In this document: in pieces, positions 32,823 to 63,883 of the stretch
Layout: every line of letters starts with the position of its first letter
Position numbering within the stretch: the first letter of the stretch is position 1
Assembly: GCA_965248755.1 (NCBI GenBank)
Contig: OZ252149.1
Span: 1,632,001 to 1,696,000, forward strand
Source of the DNA: Candidatus Latescibacterota bacterium
GTDB taxonomy: Bacteria > Latescibacterota > CBDEFO01
Direction of reading: 5' to 3'
DNA: 64,000 nucleotides
Made by a program: the position numbers and the translations under genes
The notes under the pieces: generated by a model
Database searches by the model: none
The model's input: the letters and a program-made list of their open reading frames with translations, nothing else
Told to the model about the DNA's origin: nothing

Positions 32823-34475
32823 TCAAAACTTAAGGAACTCCCTCTGTACACCGAATACTTCCCTCAACACATCGCATATCTCCCCCACTGTAGCGTAAGA
32901 TTTGACTGCGTCCAATACAAAGGGCATCAGATTGTCGTCGCCACGGGCGGCACTTTTCAACGCTGAGAGGGAATTCTGGACGGCCTTATTATCCCTTTCT
33001 GACTTGAGAGCGTTCAGATTCTCGATCTGGATCTTTTCGGCATCGGGGTCGACTCTGAACAAGTCCCTTTGCGCCTCCTTTTCAGTGAACTTGTTCACAC
33101 CCACAACAACTCTCTCGGAACCTTCTATCTCCTTTTGATACCTGTACGCACTCTGGTGAATCTGGTCCTGGATATATCCCTCCCCAATTGCCTTTACAGC
33201 CCCACCCATAGCGTCTATCTTTTCTATGTATTCCAACGCCTTCTTTTCGATTTCGTCGGTGAGATACTCTACAGTGTAGGACCCTCCCAGCGGATCAACT
33301 ACAGAAGTTATGCCGGACTCGTAGGCCATAATCTGCTGGGTCCTTAGAGCCAATCCTGCTCCCTCTTCGCTCGGTAGAGACAGCGCTTCGTCGAACGAAT
33401 TGCAGTGAAGCGACTGCGCCCCGCCTAACACAGCTGCCAGAGCCTGTAAAGATACCCTCACGATATTGTTAAGAGGCTGTTGAGCTGTCAGAGTGCTCCC
33501 GTCCGTCTGAGCGTGAAAGCGCAGGAGTTCAGACGCTTTGTGGTCGCATCCGAAGCGTTCGGACACTATCTTTGCCCACAGCCTCCTTGCCGAGCGAAAC
33601 TTGGCTATCTCCTCTAAAAACTCGTTGTGCACGCCGAAGAAGAAGGAAAGCCTCGGGGCGAACTCCTCTATCTTCAGACCCGCATTCTGTGCCGCTTCCA
33701 CGTACGCTATGGCGTTGGCAAAAGTAAACGCAATCTCCTGAACAGCTGTCGCCCCTGCCTCCCGCATGTGATATCCACTTATGCTTATAGTATTCCACAG
33801 TGGAACGTGCTCCTTGCAATAGCTGAAAATGTCAGTCATAAGACGCATCGAGGCCATGGGCGGGAAGATATATGTCCCCCTTGCTATATACTCCTTCAGT
33901 ATATCGTTTTGAACCGTCCCTGAAAGCTTGGATAGAGGAACCCCCTGCTTTTCTGCCACAGCTATGTACATTGCCAACAGAATGGTGGCCGTCGCGTTTA
34001 TCGTCATAGATGTGCTGACCTTGTCCAGAGGTATCCCCCCAAAGAGGACCTCCATATCTCTCAGAGATGAAACGGGGACGCCTACTTTGCCGACCTCGCC
34101 TGAGGACATAGTGTGATCGGAATCGTAGCCCATCTGAGTCGGGAGGTCAAACGCCACGCTCAAACCCGTCTGGCCCTGTTCTAGAAGGTATCGGAAGCGC
34201 CTGTTCGACTCCTTGGCGGTGGCATAGCCCGCATACTGCCTCATCGTCCACAGGCGTCCCCTGTACATAGTGGGATATATGCCCCTTGTGAACGGGAACT
34301 GACCGGGGAATCCTGTTTCCTCCAGATAATCTCTATTATCATCCGGAGTGTTCAGCCCCTCAAGCCTTATCCCCGATGTCGTCTCGAACGATTCCTTCCT
34401 TTCGGGATGTCGGGATTTAGCCTCTTCGAGGACTCCCCTTTTCCAAGCTTCCTTCTCACGTTTGAAGTTTTTCAT
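32823..34475 (-). CDS. Methylmalonyl-CoA mutase family, substrate-binding large subunit
   Basis: [51 protein letters not shown]; no B12-binding domain. Confidence 0.93.
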
Positions 34476-34906
34476 ATCTCCAGACCAGTGGTCTTAAGAA
34501 ACAAAAACAAAACTGCAAGAGATAAGTTAATAGCGTGGCTGGTCAAACATAAGGGACACGATACCTCTATTTTGAAGAATAAAGCGTATGTAAGGTATAT
34601 TCCTAAAGTAACGGTAAAAAATGAGATGCCCAAAAGGACATCTAAAACGTCAGGGAGCCTTATTAGGGCCCCTGAAGAAATCAAAAAGATGATAGAAAAA
34701 TAATAGGCTATTCCCCAAATGAAGTTGGGGAGCCAGAAAACTTTCGCATAGGGCGTCATCAGGATGCTTATACACTCTCTTTCTTTCATCCTGCAGAAGG
34801 AGGGCATCCATCTGCTATCGGGTTCGATTATTCTGTAATATACGAGGGTAAAGTAGCCCGATATATAGAGACCGAGGAAGGCCGAAAGCAAAATGATATA
34901 GACCAC
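34472..34906 (-). CDS. Vitamin K epoxide reductase (VKOR) family membrane protein
   Basis: Loop cysteines ([13 protein letters not shown]), transmembrane helices, CPLC. Confidence 0.82.
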
Positions 34907-52485: not shown

Positions 52486-53447
52486 ACGCAGAGCGACGGG
52501 TCGGATTATCGTTAAAGTGGAAGACCATCATACTTGGCATAGCAGGTCTTTACTTTGTTCAGACCTATCTTCTAAGAGGGTTGGAGGCTCACCAAGCTCT
52601 CGTAGCTCTTTTGATAGCGATATTAGTATGGAAAGCTTCAAGGGAGTTTCTGTCGCATTGGTGGCCCTTTATGCTCGTGTGGGTCTTATACGACCTGACT
52701 ATGAGAGGAATCGCACAAAAGATAGCAGGACGCGTCAACGTAAAGATGCCTTACAAGATAGAGGAATTTCTCTTTTCAGACCTCTTCCAGGGCAAAATAC
52801 CTCCCTTTTGGTTTCAAGATCTAAGAGGATCTATTGACGGGACATATTTGAAGGTGGGATTGGACGTTCTATCCTCAGTGTGTTATTCTCTACATATGAT
52901 CTTTCCACTTATCGCCGCGTGGGTCCTGTGGAGAAGAGTGGAGGACAGAAAGCTGTTTCGGCAGTTTGCGCTTATATTTGCGGCAGTGAGTCTGATGGCC
53001 TTCCTAACCTATTATCTGTACCCTGCGGCACCCCCCTGGTACGTATACAGATATGGATTCGAGCAGCCGTCTTTGTCATTTTACGCCCACAGCGAGGCTT
53101 CCCTGGCCGACACAGATAAGTTTCTAGGATTTCCTCTCTTCCAGTTTGTCTACGACAACCTTAACTCCAACCAATTTGCTGCTATACCGTCCCTCCATGC
53201 TGCTTACCCTATTATCATAGCCATCTTTGCGTACAAAAAATACAAACATCCCGGTCTGCCCATAACGTTATACCCCGCAGGTGTCTGGTTTTCTGCAGTC
53301 TATCTGAATCACCACTATATAATTGACCTTCTAATCGCCCTTTTGTATGTGATTATTGCTTACCTTGCTATTGGGAAAGCACGTCTTTCAGGTCCTCAAG
53401 TTCATCTCTTGCCTTTTCAAGAGAAATCCTCTTTGAAAGCAGAATAA
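52482..53447 (+). CDS. PAP2 superfamily, Aur1/inositol-phosphorylceramide-synthase-like membrane enzyme
   Basis: YPAAPPWY, FAAIPSLHAAY, HHYIIDL. Confidence 0.82.
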   Translation: MNAERRVGLSLKWKTIILGIAGLYFVQTYLLRGLEAHQALVALLIAILVWKASREFLSHWWPFMLVWVLYDLTMRGIAQKIAGRVNVKMPYKIEEFLFSDLFQGKIPPFWFQDLRGSIDGTYLKVGLDVLSSVCYSLHMIFPLIAAWVLWRRVEDRKLFRQFALIFAAVSLMAFLTYYLYPAAPPWYVYRYGFEQPSLSFYAHSEASLADTDKFLGFPLFQFVYDNLNSNQFAAIPSLHAAYPIIIAIFAYKKYKHPGLPITLYPAGVWFSAVYLNHHYIIDLLIALLYVIIAYLAIGKARLSGPQVHLLPFQEKSSLKAE

Positions 53448-54060
53448 TGTAAAGCAGGGTGAAAGTGAAAAGGCAGAGCATCAACGTGCGGGACATCGAA
53501 GGCGGAGCCCCCGCTCCCAGACCCTCCGGTCTCATCATCACGGGAAGCGGATGGAGCGTCCTCCACCACGTGACGGAGACGTGTATGACGGGCACGTCCA
53601 AAAAGCCGACGATTCCAATAACCGCTGCGAATCTTGCGCTCTTTGAATAGTCCCCTGCGTAGGCCCTGACCATAATATAGCCCACGTAGATGAGCCAGAG
53701 TATAAGCGTAGTTGTAAGCCTTGCATCCCAGACCCACCAGACGCCCCAATCGTTCTTGGCCCAGATAGGACCGGTTAAGATGACGAGTGTGCAGAAGAAG
53801 AGGCCTACCTCTGCGGAGGAGTGGGCTATTATGTCCCATTTGCGCCGCTTCTCCCAGAGATAGAGGATGCTCGTTATGAAGACTATGAAAAAGGCTAAAA
53901 ACGAAACCCACGCAGAGGGAACATGAAAGTAGAATATCTTCTGACTGAGCCCAAGCGTCCTATCCGGCGGCGTATAGATGAATATGGCCCAGAGACATAC
54001 GATCATCAGCAGAGATACAACGCCGAGCAGTATATCCATGCCGGATATTTTCCTTTCCAT
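53368..54060 (-). CDS. ccmC: Heme exporter protein C
   Basis: IFYFHVPSAW, TGPIWAKNDWGVWWVWDARLT, WWRTLHP. Confidence 0.93.
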   Translation of the reverse strand: MERKISGMDILLGVVSLLMIVCLWAIFIYTPPDRTLGLSQKIFYFHVPSAWVSFLAFFIVFITSILYLWEKRRKWDIIAHSSAEVGLFFCTLVILTGPIWAKNDWGVWWVWDARLTTTLILWLIYVGYIMVRAYAGDYSKSARFAAVIGIVGFLDVPVIHVSVTWWRTLHPLPVMMRPEGLGAGAPPSMSRTLMLCLFTFTLLYIILLSKRISLEKARDELEDLKDVLSQ

Positions 54061-54202
54061 TTTATGTCTCTCCTCAGATTTACGGCGTCAAAAATGCAGA
54101 ATACGAAGGCCCACCGCTCAAGCTACAGCCGTTTTTTTAGCCGCCTGCTGTGCGAAATACCTCGCGGTGCAGAGCTTGCACCTGTCTTGCCAAATCCACC
54201 TG

Positions 54203-54817
54203 TTAACGGTCTATTTCACCAATCTGTTCGGCGAGCAGCAGGATCTGATTCTGATAGGTTTCCTTAGGTACGCTCCGCCCGATTCTTTCAAAGGCTCGGC
54301 GTAAGAGTCCATGAGCCTCCGCTTTGTTTCCTCGCAACAGGGCCTTGACCGCGGCAATAGCGTTCATCAAGGCGCTGTGTGTACGCGACCAGTCACTTCC
54401 TCTGGCCAAGTTATTGTTCAAGTCATACCTCGAATCCCGGTGAATCGATTTTGCGAAGATTCCAATATCCACGCGCCAGAACAGCGGTGTTCCAGCAAAT
54501 TGAACAAAGATGAGCCGATGTGTTTCTGAGTTCTGGAGGTCAGGGTCCGACCGCAATGATGCCACCGCGCAGACCTTTGAAAGATCTTCAAGGATCCCAT
54601 CTGCGCGCGAGGCGAAAAGCTCGTCCGGTACTTCCCAAGATATGTCGATATCGCTGTACTCATCCGCCCGCCCATCACCCAGCGAACCGCAAAGCCTGGC
54701 TTTAGAACCCGGTGCAGCATCTTCGAGACAGCCAAGGACTGCTTCCGCAAGAGACAATCGTAATAACGGGTCCAAATTCATTGTCAAGGTACTTGTCCTT
54801 GTCACAGAATAGCTCAT
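54203..54817 (-). CDS. Nucleotidyltransferase-domain protein
   Basis: GSLGDGRADEYSDID motif. Confidence 0.7.
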   Translation of the reverse strand: MSYSVTRTSTLTMNLDPLLRLSLAEAVLGCLEDAAPGSKARLCGSLGDGRADEYSDIDISWEVPDELFASRADGILEDLSKVCAVASLRSDPDLQNSETHRLIFVQFAGTPLFWRVDIGIFAKSIHRDSRYDLNNNLARGSDWSRTHSALMNAIAAVKALLRGNKAEAHGLLRRAFERIGRSVPKETYQNQILLLAEQIGEIDR

Positions 54818-54857
54818 CTAGGAATGTGTACCGGAGGTAAAAAGCTGTTAACTGCGG

Positions 54858-55535
54858 TTACTCCTCTATTACGAAGTCAAAGACTATTACGGAGACTGCC
54901 AGGAAAAGGGCTATAAAGACTACAAGGAGCTTGATCCACCTTGTTATCTCTCCAAATGCCCCACCATCCAGAATCGTGCCCGTAGCCTGTACAGAGGCGA
55001 TTACTATGGGAGAAATTACAGGGAAGAGGAGCACAGGGAGCATTACGTCCCTCATTTTGGTGTTGGCCGATATGGCGGCAAACAGGGTCCCGACACAGCA
55101 GAATCCGAGCGTCCCCAAAAGGATGATCAAAAGGAGCTGAGGCAGAACGTGGATAATAGGAACGTTTAAAAAGACCGCGAAAGGCAAGAGTGTGATAAGC
55201 TCTATTATGGTCATGAATATGAAATTGCCTACCATCTTTCCAAGATAGATTGCGCTCCTGTCCACAGGGCACAGTAGGAGCCCCTGCAGTGAGCCCGTGT
55301 CCTGCTCCTGAGCAAAAGACCTGTTCAGACCGAGCGTCCCTGAGAATATGAAGGCGACCCACAGGATTCCCGGCGCTATCTTTCTCATCTGGAGAGCACC
55401 TGTGCTAAATGAGAAGTTGAAGACTACTATAACTATCAGCGAGAAGACAAACATTGAGCTTATCTTCTCTTTAGTTCTGAGTTCTGTCAGGAGATCTTTC
55501 CAGAGGATGGTCACTATCTTTTTAAGGAAATTCAT
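54858..55535 (-). CDS. ccmB: Heme exporter protein B
   Basis: WKDLLTELR, APGILWV, LPVLLFP. Confidence 0.92.
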   Translation of the reverse strand: MNFLKKIVTILWKDLLTELRTKEKISSMFVFSLIVIVVFNFSFSTGALQMRKIAPGILWVAFIFSGTLGLNRSFAQEQDTGSLQGLLLCPVDRSAIYLGKMVGNFIFMTIIELITLLPFAVFLNVPIIHVLPQLLLIILLGTLGFCCVGTLFAAISANTKMRDVMLPVLLFPVISPIVIASVQATGTILDGGAFGEITRWIKLLVVFIALFLAVSVIVFDFVIEE

Positions 55536-55634
55536 CTTGTGCTTTACTGTTTACTGGGCGTGTCAGACAGGAATGTCTGACCCACCACACATAGGTTCGC
55601 CCCTACATGCCTTTCCCTGTCTACTGTATGCTGT

Positions 55635-56357
55635 CTACTGTTCTTTGACGTGCTGACGATATATCTCTTTAAAGTCTTCTAATTTGTCCCCATCAGCTTC
55701 CATCGTCCTTTGATGATAAACGAATTTTCCTCTTGCTAGTATAGCCGCCCTATCGGAAAGCTGAAGTCCCTTTTCCATATTGTGAGTTGCCATTATTATA
55801 GTTCTTTTGCCTTTTTTGAGATCCTCTAAGATGTCTGTGAACGTCTCGGAGGCGTTCTGGTCAAGTCCTGTATAGGGTTCGTCTAAAAGGAGTATAGGAG
55901 GAGAGTGAAGAAGGGCTCTTGCAATTGAGAGCCTCTGCTTTTGTCCCCTTGAGAAGGCCGATACTCTGTCGTCCTTCCTGTGGGACATTCCGATCTGTTC
56001 AAGTGACAAAGAGATCCTTTCACCCAGGTCGGACACATCGTACATCGCGCCGTAGAACCTCAAGTTCTCCTCTGCTGTAAGCTCCTCGTAGAGAAAGCTA
56101 TTGTGGGATATTACTCCGATTTGTGCTCTCATCTTCGCAGGATCGCGCCCGAGATCAATTCCGTTTATATAGACCTTTCCCTCTGTGGGCTTTGAAGAAG
56201 CTGAGATGAGATTGACAAGCGTAGTCTTGCCCGCTCCGTTGGGACCGAAGATGGCAAGAAACTCCCCTTTATCCAGCTGGAGGTCTATTTGGCTTAAAGC
56301 CTTGATTTTTCCGAAGGTCTTGGAGAGGTTGACTACGTTGATAGCGGGTCGGTCCAT
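55635..56357 (-). CDS. ccmA: Heme ABC exporter ATP-binding protein
   Basis: GPNGAGKTT, FSRGQKQRL, LLDEPYTGLD; operon context. Confidence 0.9.
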   Translation of the reverse strand: MDRPAINVVNLSKTFGKIKALSQIDLQLDKGEFLAIFGPNGAGKTTLVNLISASSKPTEGKVYINGIDLGRDPAKMRAQIGVISHNSFLYEELTAEENLRFYGAMYDVSDLGERISLSLEQIGMSHRKDDRVSAFSRGQKQRLSIARALLHSPPILLLDEPYTGLDQNASETFTDILEDLKKGKRTIIMATHNMEKGLQLSDRAAILARGKFVYHQRTMEADGDKLEDFKEIYRQHVKEQ

Positions 56358-56401
56358 CGGGACTCCCGAAAAGTATCGATGGGAAGAAAAGTAGAGTGTG
56401 G

Positions 56402-56923
56402 TTAGGTGGTCTGGCTCTCTGCATCTGTTTGTAACTTGGCCCCGCAGTTAGCGCAGAATTGGTCTTTCTTATCGTATGGATCTCCGCAGGCTGGACAGAT
56501 GCTGTCAAGCTTGAATCCACAGTTAGCGCAGTAGTTGTGATTCGATGTGTTCTCCCTGTGGCACTGGGGACAGATGATATGTCTCTTCCCAGGGGTAGGA
56601 GTATGAGCCTTGCGCCTCTTGCGCCTGCCATTTAGCCTGTCTATTTCCTGAAGGATGGCCGCGGCTTCGAGCTTGTATTCGTTCACAACTTGTCGATGAT
56701 CTTCTTCCAGGAGCTTGCCCATACTAAGGTCGAAGTTGGCGTCTTTTATGGATGCGTATATCTGCTCCTTGCGGATGGCAAGATCTGCAAGCCCGTCCTT
56801 TAAGGTGGAGCCTTCTTCAGCTCCTGACGGCCTCTTGGATAGAAGGGGATAGCTGACGAATGCTAAGACTGCAGCGCCTATTACTGTGTAAAATACGAGT
56901 AACATATCGGGTTCTATGTGCAA
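56402..56923 (-). CDS. CcmI-like N-terminus + double zinc-ribbon protein
   Basis: Transmembrane helix, IKDANFDLSMGKL, CPQC/CANC/CPAC/CANC. Confidence 0.75.
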   Translation of the reverse strand: MHIEPDMLLVFYTVIGAAVLAFVSYPLLSKRPSGAEEGSTLKDGLADLAIRKEQIYASIKDANFDLSMGKLLEEDHRQVVNEYKLEAAAILQEIDRLNGRRKRRKAHTPTPGKRHIICPQCHRENTSNHNYCANCGFKLDSICPACGDPYDKKDQFCANCGAKLQTDAESQTT

Positions 56924-56929
56924 AGAGAA

Positions 56930-57421
56930 CTATTCGAATTCATCAAGTTCGCGTTCAACTCTTTCTATATACTCGGAATCAGGGATTTCGCCCCTTTTAG
57001 GGCGACTCGATCCGGCCACAGAGTCGGAATTCGACCTCTGGGCGCTCTTTTTCCATCTGACAACCAGACCCCTTAATAATACTCCGCCCAATATTAAAGC
57101 GACAAAAGGCATTGCCCAGGCGGTCAGGTTGAAGCCCGTCTTTGTAGGGGCTGCAAGCACCGCTTCGCCAAATTTATCTACATAAAGGGCTACTATTCTC
57201 TCCTTCGAGTAACCCTTTATGATCAGTTGATCTATCTGTGTTGCTTCACTTTGGGACCATCCGCAGTCGGCTTTGTTGATGCAAGCGCTCAGGATCAGGT
57301 TTCCGCATCCGCCGCATTGGCAGGCAAGTTCATCAGCCACTTCTTTGGTCTCGACGGCGATGAGCCAAGACGGAACCAAAAAGGGCAGCAATATAAGTGT
57401 AAACACTATATTCTTTGCCAT
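56930..57421 (-). CDS. ccmH: Cytochrome c biogenesis protein CcmH
   Basis: LACQCGGC, KFGEAVLAAP, AWAMP. Confidence 0.85.
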   Translation of the reverse strand: MAKNIVFTLILLPFLVPSWLIAVETKEVADELACQCGGCGNLILSACINKADCGWSQSEATQIDQLIIKGYSKERIVALYVDKFGEAVLAAPTKTGFNLTAWAMPFVALILGGVLLRGLVVRWKKSAQRSNSDSVAGSSRPKRGEIPDSEYIERVERELDEFE

Positions 57422-57454
57422 TGATAATCACCTCTTTAACTTACAACACTTGCG

Positions 57455-59491
57455 TCACTTAACCAATGAGACCTTCGTCTTCCTTTTCTCCGTTATCTGC
57501 ACCTTCGTTTTATCTCTTCTTATCTTCTCGCGAGGATCTATATCCTCTTTTTCCGGGTACATTGTGATGATTGTACCCAGGATCAACACGACACCGCCTA
57601 TCCAGAGCCACATGACCAGCGGATTGATGAAGGCGTTGAATATGGCCTGTCCTGACTCTGGGTCGAGCTGAGCAAGGACTATGTAGAGGTCTTCCTTTAG
57701 CGTGGAACGGATGGCAACCGCCGTCTGAGGCTGGACGTCCTGTCTTGTGGAATGGAAGAAGTATTTTCTCGGATGCAGTACGTCAATCCTCTCTCCATCT
57801 TTGTGGACAGAAATAGTCGTAGATTGGACGTCTTTATCGGGGTCTTCGTAGGTTGAGAACTTGTCGTAATGGAGTGTGTAGTTTCTGAGCTGCATCTTAT
57901 CACCTGTTTGGAGGAGCTGACCTGTGATCTCAGTTCTGAAGGCGTTTCCAGCGATGGACATAAATATAAGGACGATCCCGATGTGGACTATATAACCTCC
58001 ATATCTCCTCCTGTTCTTCCAGACAAGGTTCCAGAGAGCTTGAGCATACGTCTCGTTGTTAGAAATGTGTCTTGCTCTTACCCCCCTGTAGAATTCGCTG
58101 ACTATTGAAGCGGTGACAAATACGCACAGCGTGAAGGAGACAAGGGCGTACCAGTTGGTGATTTTAAGGGCTAAGAAGATGGGAATCGCAAGCAGAGCCA
58201 CTACAGTCGGATAGAGGAAGTGCCTTTTGAGGTTTTTTACAGATGTCCTGCGCCAGGCCAACAGGGGACCTGCTCCTGTAAGGAAGAGTAAAATGATACC
58301 TATGGGAAGGGTAATCTGGTTGAAAAACGGGGCTCCGACAGTGATCTTAACTCCCTTTACGGCTTCTGATATGATGGGGAAGATGGTGCCCCAGAACACT
58401 GCAAAAAATGCACCGACCAGTATTAGGTTGTTGACCATAAATCCCATCTCTCTGGAGACGAAGGATTCTAAATGGTTTCGGCTCTTAAGTTGTGGGAATC
58501 GGTAAGCGACAAGGGCAAAAGCAAAGGCAAAAATCGCTATTATGATGGCCAAAAAATAGTATCCTATTGAGGATTCAGCGAAGGTGTGAACAGAGTTGAC
58601 TATACCGCTCCTTGTGAGGAATGTCCCGAAGATGCACATAGTGAACGTGAGGATAATAAGTATCATGTTCCAGATTTTGAGCATACTTTTCTTTTCCTGT
58701 ATCATCACAGAGTGGAGAAAGGCCGTACCCAGAAGCCAGGGCATCAACGCTGAATTTTCCACAGGGTCCCAACCCCAGTATCCGCCCCATCCGATCACGA
58801 CGTACGCCCAGTTTGCGCCGAGAAGCAGTCCACAGGCCAGCAAGAACCAGGAGAAGATAGACCATTTTCTGGTGGTCTTGATCCAGGCGTTTCCGAGGTT
58901 TCCAGTTATGAGGGCTGCCATGGCAAAGGCAAAAGGAACGGTGAATCCCGAATATCCCAGAAAGACCATAGGAGGATGGATAGCCATCGCAGGATACTGA
59001 AGGAGCGGGTTCATGCCCTGTCCGTCAGGAGGCGTAAATGGGAGTTTATCAAAGGGATTGGACGTTGCAATATTTATGAACATAAAGCAGGCGACTACTC
59101 CCATGATAACGGCTGTGACATAGGGCATAAGGTCTCTGTTTTTGTGTCTATTAAGCACTATTGCCATGAATGCAAAAAGGGATATGAACCACTCCCACAT
59201 AAGGAGAGATCCTTCGTGTCCTGCCCAGAAAGCCGCAAACACATAGGGTAGGGACTGTGTGCTGTTGGAGTGGCTGGCCACGTATTCCACCTGAAAGTCT
59301 CCTATCAGGAAGGAATACACAAGACATAGAGACGCCAACGTCAACAGGCCAAAGACGGCCTTCGCGGCGTTTTGAGCGCTTTTTACAAGGTCGTCTTTCC
59401 TCAATCTGTCTCCGAGTACACATATCAAAATGGAGTACAAAGAAAGGATGAACGCCAACGTGAGTGAAAAAGATCCGATGTCTGCTGCCAT
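57455..59491 (-). CDS. ccmF: Heme lyase CcmF
   Basis: WAGHEGSLL, GMNPLLQ, HPP, WGGYWGWDPVEN, TRSGIVNSVHTF. Confidence 0.95.
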   Translation of the reverse strand: MAADIGSFSLTLAFILSLYSILICVLGDRLRKDDLVKSAQNAAKAVFGLLTLASLCLVYSFLIGDFQVEYVASHSNSTQSLPYVFAAFWAGHEGSLLMWEWFISLFAFMAIVLNRHKNRDLMPYVTAVIMGVVACFMFINIATSNPFDKLPFTPPDGQGMNPLLQYPAMAIHPPMVFLGYSGFTVPFAFAMAALITGNLGNAWIKTTRKWSIFSWFLLACGLLLGANWAYVVIGWGGYWGWDPVENSALMPWLLGTAFLHSVMIQEKKSMLKIWNMILIILTFTMCIFGTFLTRSGIVNSVHTFAESSIGYYFLAIIIAIFAFAFALVAYRFPQLKSRNHLESFVSREMGFMVNNLILVGAFFAVFWGTIFPIISEAVKGVKITVGAPFFNQITLPIGIILLFLTGAGPLLAWRRTSVKNLKRHFLYPTVVALLAIPIFLALKITNWYALVSFTLCVFVTASIVSEFYRGVRARHISNNETYAQALWNLVWKNRRRYGGYIVHIGIVLIFMSIAGNAFRTEITGQLLQTGDKMQLRNYTLHYDKFSTYEDPDKDVQSTTISVHKDGERIDVLHPRKYFFHSTRQDVQPQTAVAIRSTLKEDLYIVLAQLDPESGQAIFNAFINPLVMWLWIGGVVLILGTIITMYPEKEDIDPREKIRRDKTKVQITEKRKTKVSLVK

Positions 59492-59492
59492 A

Positions 59493-59918
59493 CTAATTCC
59501 TATATGATGATGAGTCTGTGGCGGCCTCGTGTTCTTTATAGTCCTGTCCTTCGTACTTGGAAGGACATTTGGCCATTACGGTTTCGGCCTCGAAGGTCCT
59601 GTCTGTGTAATACCTGCCCTCAGCCACGACCTCTACTCCGTCTTTGAAAGTATCAGGGACTACGCCTGTGTAAGTGATGGGTATCCTTCTGTCATCCTGG
59701 GCGATCACAAACTGCATCTTGAGACTGTTGAGACTCTTTTGAATTGAGCCGTCCACGACGTTCCCAACCACGCGTAGCGTTTTATCGTAGACAGGAGCAG
59801 CTTCAAGCTCCTCTATTGTTACATAATAGACCATCGTCTTTTCAAAGCCCGTATAGATGAGATAGAAAAGGGCTATAATGACCACGCCGAGACTGATGTA
59901 GTATTTAGCTTGCTTCAT
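59493..59918 (-). CDS. ccmE: Heme chaperone CcmE (CxxxY variant)
   Basis: PDTFKDG, MAKCPSKYE. Confidence 0.93.
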   Translation of the reverse strand: MKQAKYYISLGVVIIALFYLIYTGFEKTMVYYVTIEELEAAPVYDKTLRVVGNVVDGSIQKSLNSLKMQFVIAQDDRRIPITYTGVVPDTFKDGVEVVAEGRYYTDRTFEAETVMAKCPSKYEGQDYKEHEAATDSSSYRN

Positions 59919-60163: not shown

Positions 60164-60508
60164 TCACTCGGCTTTCGTCAAAATGTCTTCAATGTGAGGA
60201 AGAATGTCCGGGAGTTGCTCTTTGGCGATCGTCCACACAATCTCATAGTCGATGCCAAAGTAGTGATGGATCATTTTATCTCTTACGCCAGCCAGGTCTC
60301 TCCATGGAATCTGGCTGTAGGTCTTTCTCAGGTGACTGGATAGATTCTTCGTCGCTTCACCGATGACCTCAAGATTGCGAACGACTGCATCCTGAGTCTT
60401 GATGTCTTTCATAAACTGCTCGAAGGTCAGGCCCGCGCTATATATCACAATTCTCCGCATCGCCTCAAGGATATCACTCAGATAGTCCCCGTTTCTTCGC
60501 TCAGACAT
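60164..60508 (-). CDS. HEPN (DUF86/HepT-like) RNase toxin
   Basis: QDAVVRNLEVIGEA; R-x4-H motif RDKMIH. Confidence 0.9.
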   Translation of the reverse strand: MSERRNGDYLSDILEAMRRIVIYSAGLTFEQFMKDIKTQDAVVRNLEVIGEATKNLSSHLRKTYSQIPWRDLAGVRDKMIHHYFGIDYEIVWTIAKEQLPDILPHIEDILTKAE

Positions 60509-60824
60509 AGCTCAGGGTGCTTTCGATGTTGGAAGCAATGTCTCTGTATCTGGGATTTTCAATGCTCCTGTGCAGGGTATCCAAGGTGGCCAGGTCCACT
60601 TTCCTGCCCAGCGCCTCCTCAAGATGATAGGCAAGTTCGACAAACTCCAGGCCAAGAGGTCTTACGAGCTGGACAAGGATGTCAATATCACTTTTTTTGG
60701 TAGGATCACCCTTCGCAAACGAGCCGTAGATAGCTATCCTTACCACGCCGTATTCACCTCGCAAATACGGCAGTTCCTCTCTCAATATTTGCAAGACTTT
60801 TTCTTTGGTCAGAGTATCTTTCAC
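60501..60824 (-). CDS. MNT nucleotidyltransferase antitoxin
   Basis: YGSFAKG...SDIDILV, LGRKVDL. Confidence 0.9.
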   Translation of the reverse strand: MKDTLTKEKVLQILREELPYLRGEYGVVRIAIYGSFAKGDPTKKSDIDILVQLVRPLGLEFVELAYHLEEALGRKVDLATLDTLHRSIENPRYRDIASNIESTLSYV

Positions 60825-60948
60825 GCCCTCACCACCAGATCAACGGTTTGATGAGTCCGTAGTCCAAATTCTCGCCGTCGATTTTGACAGCATTTGAAGT
60901 TATACCTTAGGCTTATCAAATCAGTATTCTTACATGAAATTTAGCTTG

Positions 60949-61281
60949 TTAGGAATTTCGTTTTATTTGTTTCTTGACTGTTGTAAGCTCATCTGTAACA
61001 ATTTGCCATATGATGCGGGGACTCACATCAAAATACTCATGAGCAATTCTATTTCTCAGTCCGACGACACCTTGCCAATCTATCTCTGGATATTTCCTCT
61101 AGATTTCTTGGGGCATAAACTTCGATGCTTCACCGATGATCTCAAAGTTTCTCACTACCGCATCTATCGTTTTTCTATCCTGTTGGAAATCAGCAAACTC
61201 CATATGCTCAGTATATTTTTGGATTAACTCAATAGATTCTAAAATATCCTCCACGTAGAGTCGCCATTCTCTTTTAGACAT
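60949..61281 (-). pseudogene. Second HEPN (DUF86) toxin, interrupted by an in-frame TAG at 61099-61101
   Basis: After the TAG the frame continues RKYPEIDWQGVVGLRNRIAHEYFDV...RNS*, including the R-x4-H motif. Confidence 0.85.
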
Positions 61282-61564
61282 ACGTTAAATCTTCTTTGAT
61301 ATATTTCCATCTGTTAGGTTTAATACCATCCTGCGTCACTAAATCAACCTTCACTCCTAATGCTTCTTCCAAAAAGTCCGCCAGATGAATGAACAGAAAC
61401 CCAACAGGCTCCCTAAACTTTACCAAAATATCGAGGTCACTTTTTTCATCTTGGTCATCTCTAACATAGGAGCCAAAGATGGCAATTTCTTTGACCTTGT
61501 ATTTCTCCTCCAACTCTTGTCTGTGCTGTTTGATGACTTCTCTAATTTCTTCTACATTTTTCAT
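61274..61564 (-). CDS. MNT nucleotidyltransferase antitoxin (second)
   Basis: IFGSYVR...SDLDILV, LGVKVDLV. Confidence 0.9.
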   Translation of the reverse strand: MKNVEEIREVIKQHRQELEEKYKVKEIAIFGSYVRDDQDEKSDLDILVKFREPVGFLFIHLADFLEEALGVKVDLVTQDGIKPNRWKYIKEDLTYV

Positions 61565-61892
61565 ATCCTTACCACCGACTCAAGAGTTCGATAAGTCTGC
61601 AGTCCAAATTCTTGATGTCCACCGTTTCACGAGATCCAAATTCCACACGGTTTCGCAATGTCCTGGAGCTTGTGGCCAAAAGGTTTAAATAGCCGGAATC
61701 ACCTTCCACGCATGATCTGGATTAAAGATCTGAGTATAAATTATAGCAAATATAAGAGCAAAAGCCAAGTGAAATCTGGTGAGAGGGTTCAGAAAAGCAA
61801 AAAGGTAGGCATGGTCGCAAGAAAAGGTCAGAACAGAGGGAGGGAAAGCGGTGCCCTGTCTACCCCCGATTGAGTCTATCGGGGATCGGGGG

Positions 61893-63284
61893 CTACTGTC
61901 TACTTGTTCGGGAGGGATCCTGACATACGTTCATAAACGTGGCAGCAAAGTTGAAATGATCATCGCGCTCATCTGTATGACAGAAAAGACAGGCGCTCTC
62001 TTTGACAGTCCGGGAGCGCATCTGCTCTATGTCCCCCTCCAGGTGCTGGCTCCCGGCGCCGTGACACGATTCGCACTGGACGTCTTTGAGATTCCCCACT
62101 TGATTGGGATGCCAGAAACCTCCACTTGTAAGGTAGCCGACAGTGTGACAGCCGATGCATTCGGGGTCCAACTCCTGACCTGCCTTTTGCAGGGTCTGAT
62201 AAGCGCGTGCATGCGGGGTCGACAGCCAGAACTCGTACCTGCCCTCGTGACACATCCGACACTCAAGATCGCTCACGAACCTGAGACCCTCCACCTCCAC
62301 TGCATCCTTGTCTGTTATTAATCTGGCCCGCTCTATCTGACGAATCTCGGTCTTGTACTGATCTACCATGGCCTGTATTTTCGGATAGCTCTTGATCTTT
62401 TTGTCCAGAGCGGTCAGAGTGTGTATGTAACCGTAGCTCCCAAGGGTTCTGCGATTTGGGAAAGCGGGATCTTGCAGGATCAGTTCCAACTGTCCTATAT
62501 ACTTGCCCTGTGCACCTGCGTGTAAGGGCAACACTCCGTTGTACTCGGAAGGATTCCGAATGGGCTTGCTGTCAGACCCTCCGATAATGATGTCGATTCC
62601 AGGGACCTTGTACGCCAGTCTGACCGTCACTTCTTGCCTTAAATCCACCAAGGCGACAATGAAATCGCACGTCCCCCTGAGTAATTGGACCGTTTGTCTT
62701 GCAGCATCTATGGGGTCCTCAATTACAAGACCGTCTTCCATCTTTTGGATATATGAAAATTCATCCTCCAAAAGGCCGAAGATGCCGAATTTTATGCCAT
62801 TTACGGTCTTGATCAAATAAGGCTCGAAAAGGGGCTCTTTTGAATCCTTTTGTACCAGGTTTGCTGATACTAAGGGCAAAGATTCTGCACCATCAGCCTC
62901 AGCTAAAAAAGAGACTCCCTCAGCCAGATCAAGAAGACCCACGTTAACTGCATCGTATCCCATATCGAGGTAAGTCCGTTTGATCACAGCCGCCTTCTTT
63001 AACCACTGCTCCTGAAGATGGTCAGGGATGAGGAAATTTTGAAACAGCGCTCCCCCAGCATCCACGAGCAATAAAGACACGCTAACGGATCTCAGGCTGT
63101 CTATGAAAGTGGCTCGCCTGGCAAGACCGCCAAGCGGTGCTTTCTTTCACCCACAGGGTTCTAACTCTCCCTTGCCCTGCGTGGTGTAGAGCAGGCTCAG
63201 CTTACTCAGCGTCTGTCCCCGTGCAGAAAAAGCGGGCAATAGGCTCCCTACAAGCAGTAACATAATGAGGATACATCTCTTCAT
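61893..63284 (-). CDS. Probable selenoprotein: exported UshA-like (CxU) domain fused to a tetraheme cytochrome c554-like domain, 463 aa with Sec46
   Basis: ATG 63284 with AAGGGA RBS, signal peptide, GELEPCG-TGA(63147-63149)-KKAPLGGLARRATFI in frame with the track ORF 61893-63080; CRMCH, CIGCH, CESCH, CLFCH. Confidence 0.82.
63115..63136 (-). promoter_or_regulatory. Putative bacterial SECIS hairpin
   Basis: CGCTTGGC-GGTCTT-GCCAGGCG, 8-bp stem with one G-U pair; loop begins with G, 18 nt after the UGA. Confidence 0.65.
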
Positions 63285-63424
63285 ATCCAAGTCCCTTCAG
63301 GGGAAGACACGCACGTCTGCCCTGAGAATACCGGCGAACCCTTCCCAGATTGTTGCCACACCTCTCTGTCCGCTGCCCTCATGGGTTCGCTCTTACTGGT
63401 CTATACTGATTTTCATCCTCCAGC

Positions 63425-63883
63425 TTAGGACAGCTTTTCAAGAACTTTTTCGGTATGTCCGTCCACCCGTACTCTTCTGAATATGTGCTCTATATTCCCC
63501 TCTTTTCCAATGATGAACGTGCTCCGCTCTATGCCCATGCTTTTCTTGCCGTACATTGTCCTTTCTTTGTAGACCCCGTAGGCATCTGCAACTACCTTGT
63601 CCGGGTCGGAAAGCAAGGTAAATGGGAGGTTATACTTCTTCGCAAAGTTGCTGTGGGCATCCACCCCATCCGGGCTGATCCCCAAAATCACCGCTCCTTT
63701 GGACTCTATGGGCTCTAAATTGTCTCTGAACGAGCAGGCCTCCTTCGTGCATCCCGGAGTATCGTCTTTAGGATAGAAGTAGAGCACTACCGTGGATTTG
63801 TCCTGAAAGCCCTTCAGAGAGACCTCTTTATTGTCCCCAGACATCAACGTAAAATCAGGAGCCTTGTCTCCTACTTCAAGCAT
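63425..63883 (-). CDS. bcp: Thioredoxin-dependent thiol peroxidase (BCP/PrxQ)
   Basis: VLYFYPKDDTPGCTKEACSFRD, ERSTFII. Confidence 0.95.
   Translation of the reverse strand: MLEVGDKAPDFTLMSGDNKEVSLKGFQDKSTVVLYFYPKDDTPGCTKEACSFRDNLEPIESKGAVILGISPDGVDAHSNFAKKYNLPFTLLSDPDKVVADAYGVYKERTMYGKKSMGIERSTFIIGKEGNIEHIFRRVRVDGHTEKVLEKLS

Follow-up and report, generated by a model that had tools for sequence, protein, structure and literature searches.

A UshA-like selenoprotein with a tetraheme domain in a Latescibacterota bacterium, a candidate periplasmic thiol:heme oxidoreductase

A 64,000-nucleotide stretch of a Candidatus Latescibacterota genome (assembly GCA_965248755.1, contig OZ252149.1; the stretch is hereafter the window and the genome G000) carries a gene for a 463-aa selenoprotein in which a degenerate UshA-type domain with a Cys-x-Sec motif is joined to a c554-like tetraheme domain. 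The gene is real and has been mis-called, as gene callers that treat TGA as a stop truncate it, and it is a further member of a catalogued family rather than the founder of a new one. Its product is probably an exported, soluble periplasmic selenoenzyme. The explanation that we favour, with a probability of about 0.4, is that of a periplasmic thiol:heme oxidoreductase, which would take electrons from DsbA-like proteins and pass them via the Cys-x-Sec centre to the hemes.

Gene structure and the selenocysteine codon

The ORF list made with translation table 11 shows only 61893-63080 (395 aa), and a database entry 97% identical to the window protein (P0002, 390 aa) begins after the Sec. The initial annotation had proposed that this ORF lacks its N-terminus and that the frame runs on through a TGA to an ATG at 63284, and this reading holds: with TGA read as U, the frame 63284-61893 on the reverse strand is open throughout, with one internal TGA (U46, 63147-63149) in the motif GELEPCG-U-KKAPLGGLARR and four C-terminal CxxCH motifs at residues 342, 376, 404 and 432 (Table 1). 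The signal peptide proposed at the same time is likely, since residues 1-21 hold the only strongly hydrophobic 15-mers by hydropathy, with the exception of a marginal one at residue 67. The sole RNA run (X16) is uninformative on expression, as its coverage of the gene amounts to 35 nt, 5 of them mismatched. A short REP- or MITE-like repeat (61836-61910), with 150 BLAST pieces genome-wide at E ≤ 1e-3, overlaps the stop codon of the gene.

Table 1 Features of the selenoprotein gene and of its surroundings (window coordinates).
Feature	Position	Strand	Basis
Peroxiredoxin (AhpC/TSA, BCP-like), upstream; also upstream in G001	63425..63883	-	ORF list, Pfam
Shine-Dalgarno-like AAGGGA, 7 nt 5' of ATG 63284	63292..63297	-	sequence
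Full CDS, UshA-like PCGU selenoprotein with c554-like tetraheme domain (NF041198)	61893..63284	-	463 aa; translation and family profile
Probable signal peptide, residues 1 to about 23, predicted cleavage site	63216..63284	-	hydropathy
P43-C44-G45-U46 motif; TGA at 63149-63147	63147..63158	-	translation, homolog alignment
Bacterial SECIS-like hairpin, loop GUCU at 63127-63124	63115..63136	-	folding
N-terminal fold of UshA/5'-nucleotidase type with its linker helix (residues 27-325), lacking the metal ligands and catalytic His	62310..63206	-	alignment; 1ush Z 32.5, rmsd 2.2, 274 aligned
c554-like tetraheme domain, residues 332-455; conserved H358 and H414	61920..62291	-	1bvb Z 12.1, rmsd 3.1, 132 aligned
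Four CxxCH motifs of the heme domain	62261-62247, 62159-62145, 62075-62061, 61991-61977	-	sequence
C454, adjoining the column of the terminal His of most relatives; possible His/Cys heme ligation	61923..61925	-	alignment
ccm cluster, downstream: ccmE-F-H-(zinc ribbon)-A-B-(insert)-C; same order in G001	53368..59918	-	ORF list, Pfam

The TGA is not an assembly error, since a contig of run X1, which may be the source of the assembly, spans the stretch with 0 differences and the congeneric genome G001 has the same TGA followed by 45 identical nt; no TGC or TGT is seen at this codon. Run X3 shows 52 differences from the stretch, 40 among those listed, and does not prove the TGA codon. The hairpin that had been placed 18 nt past the UGA with a loop starting in G comprises 9 pairs, with a UGA-to-loop-G spacer of 19 nt, or 18 nt when the loop is taken to include the closing G-U pair. 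Folding z-scores after the UGA were -2.07 for 60 nt (8 of 200 shuffles as good), -3.25 for 80 nt (0 of 200) and -1.40 for 100 nt. Across loci, the 45 nt following codon 46 had a mean z of -1.26 in TGA loci versus -0.36 in Cys loci (p 0.004, with kin that are not independent), and a lax SECIS rule was satisfied by 37/37 TGA loci and 24/37 Cys loci.

Homologs hold Cys or Sec at position 46, codon 46 being TGA in 37 and TGC/TGT in 37 of the 74 readable loci. The 82 loci examined comprised 80 family loci together with G000 and G001; eight were left unparsed (L040, L079, L093, L095, L099, L103, L104 and L107), one of which (L093) was later read as CNC outside the count. Sec and Cys have replaced one another repeatedly at this position, with 8 changes on the tree, of which strong branches force at least 2. 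Among protein homologs covering the columns, Cys46 is near-constant (242/243), as is Cys44 (240/243), with Sec forms under-counted among the 262 protein homologs because they are truncated in protein databases.

The genome, which is 98% complete and in one contig, encodes all four components of the Sec machinery, with selA, selB and selD over cut-off and the tRNA-Sec (selC) at 2906382; selD itself contains a TGA. Among 50 family genomes, selA passes the cut-off in 21 of the 23 that carry the TGA form and in 13 of the 27 that carry the Cys form. The assignment of this UGA as a Sec codon with a SECIS and Sec machinery in the genome is thus well supported by the comparative evidence. It is highly improbable that the gene is broken and the TGA a genuine stop, or that the protein is still a nucleotidase or phosphoesterase: the alignment of the TGA with Cys across many phyla and the distribution of selA argue against the former, while the latter, which has a strong fold match to UshA and CD73 in its favour, conflicts with the state of the active site described below. 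The selB gene and a heavy-metal P-type ATPase-like gene (identified by eye) are found upstream of the selenoprotein gene, at a distance of no more than about 16 kb (G000:C1:1709633-1711543 and 1705954-1708437).

Family membership and domain architecture

The protein matches the NCBIfam family NF041198 (UshA_like_PCGU, 'UshA-like (seleno)protein') with a score of 360.6 against a cut-off of 275, and the match covers both the UshA-like part (model positions 10-269) and the heme part (350-518, E 2e-40), so the two-domain architecture is already contained in a curated family. The PCG[U/C] motif that follows the first strand in this family is present as P43-C44-G45-U46. The novelty first attributed to the gene was therefore overrated, the family being large as well as catalogued: the NF041198 profile recovers 7,580 clusters at 50% identity (E ≤ 1e-30), which may include one-domain matches. 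Full-length copies are spread over Acidobacteriota, Planctomycetota, Myxococcota, Pseudomonadota, Nitrospirota and Thermodesulfobacteriota, among other groups, and Myxococcus has a Cys homolog (L101). This genome has one NF041198 gene. The second UshA-like selenoprotein family, NF049981 (CxxU), is not matched (54.8 against 140), the motif here being CxU. The family is listed as COG0737 UshA-like, CxU, in the reviews PMC2398784, PMC9312934 and PMC13188914, the accessible parts of which give no heme domain, partner or function for it. A literature search that took in few subscription journals and no supplements returned no functional study of any family member and no mention of a partner link.

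Relatives often have the CxC domain without the heme domain, and the phylum has many such forms. UshA-like CxC/CxU genes were observed as tandem pairs at L121 (G014:C13), L020, L030, L034, L035, L062 and L080, with both copies heme-free in most, a heme-free beside a heme-bearing copy in L062 and L080, and two Sec forms in G014. In families f6, f8 and f9 of the phylum (e.g. G006, G008, G010, G021 and G039) the best UshA-like copies read were CxC forms without hemes, and in these genomes none of DsbB, VKOR and MauE was found above its cut-off.

An AlphaFold2 model with C in place of U46 (pLDDT 89.3, pTM 0.88, a confident two-domain model) matches UshA (1ush, Z 32.5), SoxB (2wdc, Z 31.2) and, over residues 332-463, cytochrome c554 (1bvb, Z 12.1). 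These matches indicate that the heme domain stands in for the substrate-binding domain of 5'-nucleotidases: the C-terminal nucleotide-binding domain of UshA type is absent and a PF13435 domain is found there instead. The N-terminal fold and linker helix are common to the window protein and to UshA, 5'-nucleotidase, CD73 and SoxB, but those enzymes keep their dimetal ligands and catalytic His, which are replaced here, while the window protein has gained the CxU loop and the tetraheme domain; it scores far under the cut-offs of the UshA, 5'-nucleotidase and SoxB families. The replacement of the metal ligands reads as the initial annotation had described it, with Q36, K38, G78, L117, L118, D214, S237 and S239 at the metal-ligand and catalytic-His columns of the Thermus thermophilus 5'-nucleotidase. 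Since the catalytic His and every one of the six metal-ligand positions have been replaced, and hemes occupy the place of the substrate-binding domain, the view that the protein is not a nucleotidase stands.

Near-invariant residues of the N-terminal domain cluster on the CxC loop (262 homologs; R56 in 220/253), while none of the former metal ligands is kept by half of the homologs. The old metal columns are nevertheless bimodal, a D/N78-E/D117-H214-H237 set being complete in 87/259 homologs and wholly absent in 80/259, and complete in 18/37 Sec loci versus 3/37 Cys loci. Positions 78, 117, 214 and 237 covary most strongly and lie at the old active site adjoining the CxC loop, which would fit a Cys-x-Sec pair that coordinates a metal instead of forming a disulfide. 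On this reading the family would serve in metal binding or delivery, or would have retained a metal site in altered form, and the hemes would control the redox state. We regard this as improbable for the window protein, which has G, L, D and S at these positions yet keeps the CxU motif and the hemes; the 80 homologs with none of the four residues and the thiol-redox folds of the fused partners (see below) also argue against it. The copy described here thus differs from the family at large, about a third of whose members keep the D-E-H-H set, and also in having a Cys close to where the terminal His would be. In an MI-APC analysis of 263 sequences, covariation between the domains gave no clear CxU-heme contact, the top pair being A79-R440 (z 4.6) and the rest artefacts of invariant columns.

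The heme domain is over cut-off for PF13435, and its best sequence match in the PDB is 6i5b, which we take to be OcwA. It shares PF13435, the 1bvb fold and four CxxCH motifs with cytochrome c554 of Nitrosomonas and the c554-like module of OcwA, in agreement with the four-heme prediction made at first, but is fused to a CxU domain and has the last distal His replaced; the CycA equivalog model NF043010 is far from matched (36.1 against 400). H358 (262/262 homologs) and H414 (258/259) are conserved. Position 440 is His in 121/262 homologs and Arg in the window protein, with a bearing on an open heme 2 if the ligand assignment by homology is right. The terminal His is kept in 201/252 homologs and replaced in the window protein, in which C454 adjoins its column. 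The roles of H358, H414, position 440 and the terminal His as axial ligands are assigned from homology and in part from general knowledge of such cytochromes, and C454 is a possible ligand of a His/Cys heme. A heme domain whose terminal part has Cys but no His was found by script in 6 of 71 four-heme loci (this copy and five others), all of them Sec forms, with a seventh seen by eye.

This last arrangement recalls MccSep, for which selenium/sulfur chemistry with Sec at a His/Cys heme is described in polysulfide reduction (PMC13510729, in its accessible part), and raises the alternative of a small-molecule S/Se redox enzyme of the MccSep or TsdA kind, whose Sec would attack polysulfide, thiosulfate or selenium species beside a His/Cys or five-coordinate heme. 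The fold in common with SoxB would also suit such an enzyme. MccSep/ExtKL of Geobacter is, like the window protein, a periplasmic multiheme c protein with one Sec, but the same part of that source gives it five hemes and a Sec on a C-terminal Ig-like domain, and the window protein, with four hemes, did not match the ExtKL model (absent from its 20 NCBIfam matches). Since most homologs also keep the terminal His, no SoxY or NrfD was found in this genome, SoxY occurs in 1/50 family genomes, and no respiratory or sulfur genes are found among the identified neighbour clusters (below), we consider the small-molecule alternative unlikely. A role in the Sox pathway itself was rejected on the distribution of SoxY.

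Candidate partners, neighbouring genes and known disulfide oxidants

Among 41 longer homologs chosen for scanning, six carry a fused DsbA-like domain and six a fused DUF1573 domain; DUF1573 is itself listed as a UGC selenoprotein family in the accessible part of PMC13188914. Such fusions suggest that electrons may pass between envelope protein thiols and hemes. This genome encodes an exported, 491-aa DsbA/GILT-like protein with a CPHC motif and a Cys-rich segment (G000:C1:2100303-2101775, +), about 400 kb from the selenoprotein gene and without an NCBIfam match, which aligns over 471 aa with the central part of the fusion P0122 at 33% identity and, from this alignment, is the stand-alone counterpart of the UshA-like fusions. 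Its family is small (9 matches including itself), and in the four closest of the 8 non-self matches the protein is joined to a UshA-like domain of the CxC type that lacks hemes. A CPHC homolog was found in 11 of 41 phylum genomes and only in two genera, as a separate gene in the two g1 genomes and, in all nine genomes of g7, in the same ORF as the UshA-like cytochrome.

The fused partners mostly have CPYG with a single Cys, often with GILT-like Pfam matches. Thioredoxin-type fusions require 4 changes on the tree, at least 2 of them forced, in a mapping that used 14 domain rows from 16 fusion proteins and missed 3 of the 6 DUF1573 fusions. The window protein lies outside the thioredoxin-fused clade, at a position that is not settled in this tree, which came from a quick search and has 35 of 85 inner branches open. 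No clear DUF1573-type CxC partner was found in G000, where DUF1573 matched only weakly, in Ig-like repeats of long proteins (best E 2e-7).

Neighbour clusters were defined as those present in at least 3 of the 80 loci, and 26 representatives were scanned, 7 of them without a Pfam match. They are mostly envelope or housekeeping genes, with no respiratory, sulfur or ccm genes among those identified, and a respiratory operon was rejected on this basis. A DUF1573 gene lies upstream in 12/80 loci, of which 10 have a CxC motif (5 of the 12 scanned with Pfam); these 12 loci belong to Planctomycetota, Armatimonadota and one taxonomically unassigned genome. LptD is also a neighbour in 12 of 80 loci, but this link was set aside as evidence because it looks like shared synteny of related lineages. 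In the window, the peroxiredoxin gene is the same-strand neighbour of the selenoprotein gene, and a functional link between the two is putative.

The ccm cluster downstream would be able to attach the hemes. It has an unusual CcmH (ACQCGGCG), a double zinc-ribbon membrane protein and, between ccmB and ccmC, an unrelated inserted gene (54203-54817). Small nucleotidyltransferase/HEPN-like genes (60164-61564, reverse strand, identified by eye) lie between the selenoprotein gene and ccmE, with one pair in G001 and additional ones in G000.

The position of the selenoprotein gene upstream of ccm in both G000 and G001, together with the lack of a thioredoxin gene among the ccm-cluster ORFs scanned, bears on a reversed relay in which low-potential hemes would reduce the Cys-x-Sec centre and, through it, a DsbA-like partner that repairs or isomerises mis-oxidised envelope proteins or reduces apo-cytochromes for Ccm. 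The single-Cys CPYG partners with GILT-like matches and the presence of known oxidants in most family genomes also agree with this direction. The two loci are, however, parted by a promoter-like site and toxin-antitoxin-like genes, ccm genes are not found among the identified neighbour clusters of the 80 loci, and G000 carries a CcdA/DsbD-TM gene of its own, next to which lies a gene for an exported, thioredoxin-like WCGPC protein. The CPHC motif is that of an oxidising DsbA, and a low-potential periplasmic donor would be hard to name given the heme-copper oxidase of this genome. We therefore consider the reversed relay rather doubtful, though none of the results constrains the direction of electron flow.

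Known disulfide oxidants are widespread among genomes with the family. In 50 family genomes, all family-bearing and picked from the 80 loci with a preference for long contigs and taxonomic spread, matches above cut-off were obtained for DsbB in 5, for VKOR in 16 and for MauE in 25 (35 in union), so a family protein is not needed as sole oxidant; the remaining 15, which are MAGs and possibly incomplete, had none of the three. An intact-looking stand-alone VKOR gene with four Cys including CPLC lies in the window (34472-34906, reverse strand), stand-alone VKOR being found only in G000 and G001 among 41 phylum genomes, and MauE is present in all nine g7 genomes. Strict replacement of DsbB, VKOR or MauE was therefore rejected. 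The likeness to these proteins is one of proposed role only: they are membrane-embedded, quinone-linked helical bundles, whereas the window protein is predicted to be soluble and heme-linked, with no membrane helical bundle and no DsbB-, VKOR- or MauE-type Pfam match. MauE also uses a CxC active site, often CGC, in disulfide formation, according to the accessible part of 10.64898/2026.03.05.709764.

A possible thiol-to-heme relay

In the favoured thiol:heme reading, Cys44 and Sec46 would cycle between a thiol-selenol and a selenylsulfide, exchanging with a DsbA- or thioredoxin-fold partner, here most likely the CPHC protein, through which the exchange would reach envelope protein thiols. The hemes would re-oxidise the reduced centre, possibly at the c554-type heme 2 or at a His/Cys heme, and electrons would pass on to the respiratory chain; the protein would thus act as a soluble thiol:cytochrome oxidoreductase beside VKOR or MauE. 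The Erv1-to-cytochrome c relay is an analogous thiol-to-heme path. COX1 is present in this genome, and a heme-copper oxidase cluster (G000:C1:1165611-1176587, +) that also encodes a membrane cytochrome with eight CxxCH motifs, a diheme protein and, by eye, cytochrome b-like proteins was observed as a possible electron sink.

Several comparative results point towards this relay: the near-constancy of Cys44 and position 46, in contrast to the former metal ligands, each of which fewer than half of the homologs keep, the recurrent Sec/Cys exchange, the DsbA-like and DUF1573 fusions with the DUF1573 CxC neighbours, and the CPHC homologs in the same ORF throughout g7 together with the single NF041198 gene here. 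The MauE CxC precedent, the confident two-domain model and COX1 would agree with it, as would CxC potentials of -130 to -200 mV (PMC3173608, accessible part). The known oxidants in the window, in g7 and in most family genomes weigh against it, as do the minority status of the fusions, the small CPHC family and the distance of the partner gene. The window protein, moreover, falls outside the thioredoxin-fused clade, heme-free CxC relatives are common, the fused partners are mostly of the single-Cys type, and covariation gives no clear CxU-heme contact. The initial proposal of a periplasmic redox enzyme coupling Cys-x-Sec to a heme chain survives as the best reading, but as one still drawn from comparison, with many CxC relatives lacking hemes altogether.

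A broader proposal, which we advance tentatively and hold to be doubtful, is that NF041198 may be the catalytic core of an unrecognised, quinone-independent envelope disulfide pathway in many phyla, in which the Cys-x-Sec/Cys centre of a dead nucleotidase would take electrons from DsbA-like or DUF1573 CxC proteins and deliver them to c554-type hemes, with Sec or, in this subgroup, Cys reaching the heme iron. DsbB, VKOR and MauE are all missing in about 20% of species in one survey, some of which have structural disulfides (10.64898/2026.03.05.709764, accessible part). The gene matters because its family is very large and without an assayed function, and the fusions give a named candidate partner in this genome. 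If the broader proposal is true, a quinone-independent pathway could fill part of the gap in species with structural disulfides that lack these three oxidants, and a heme-linked thiol oxidase would bear on how such species form disulfides.
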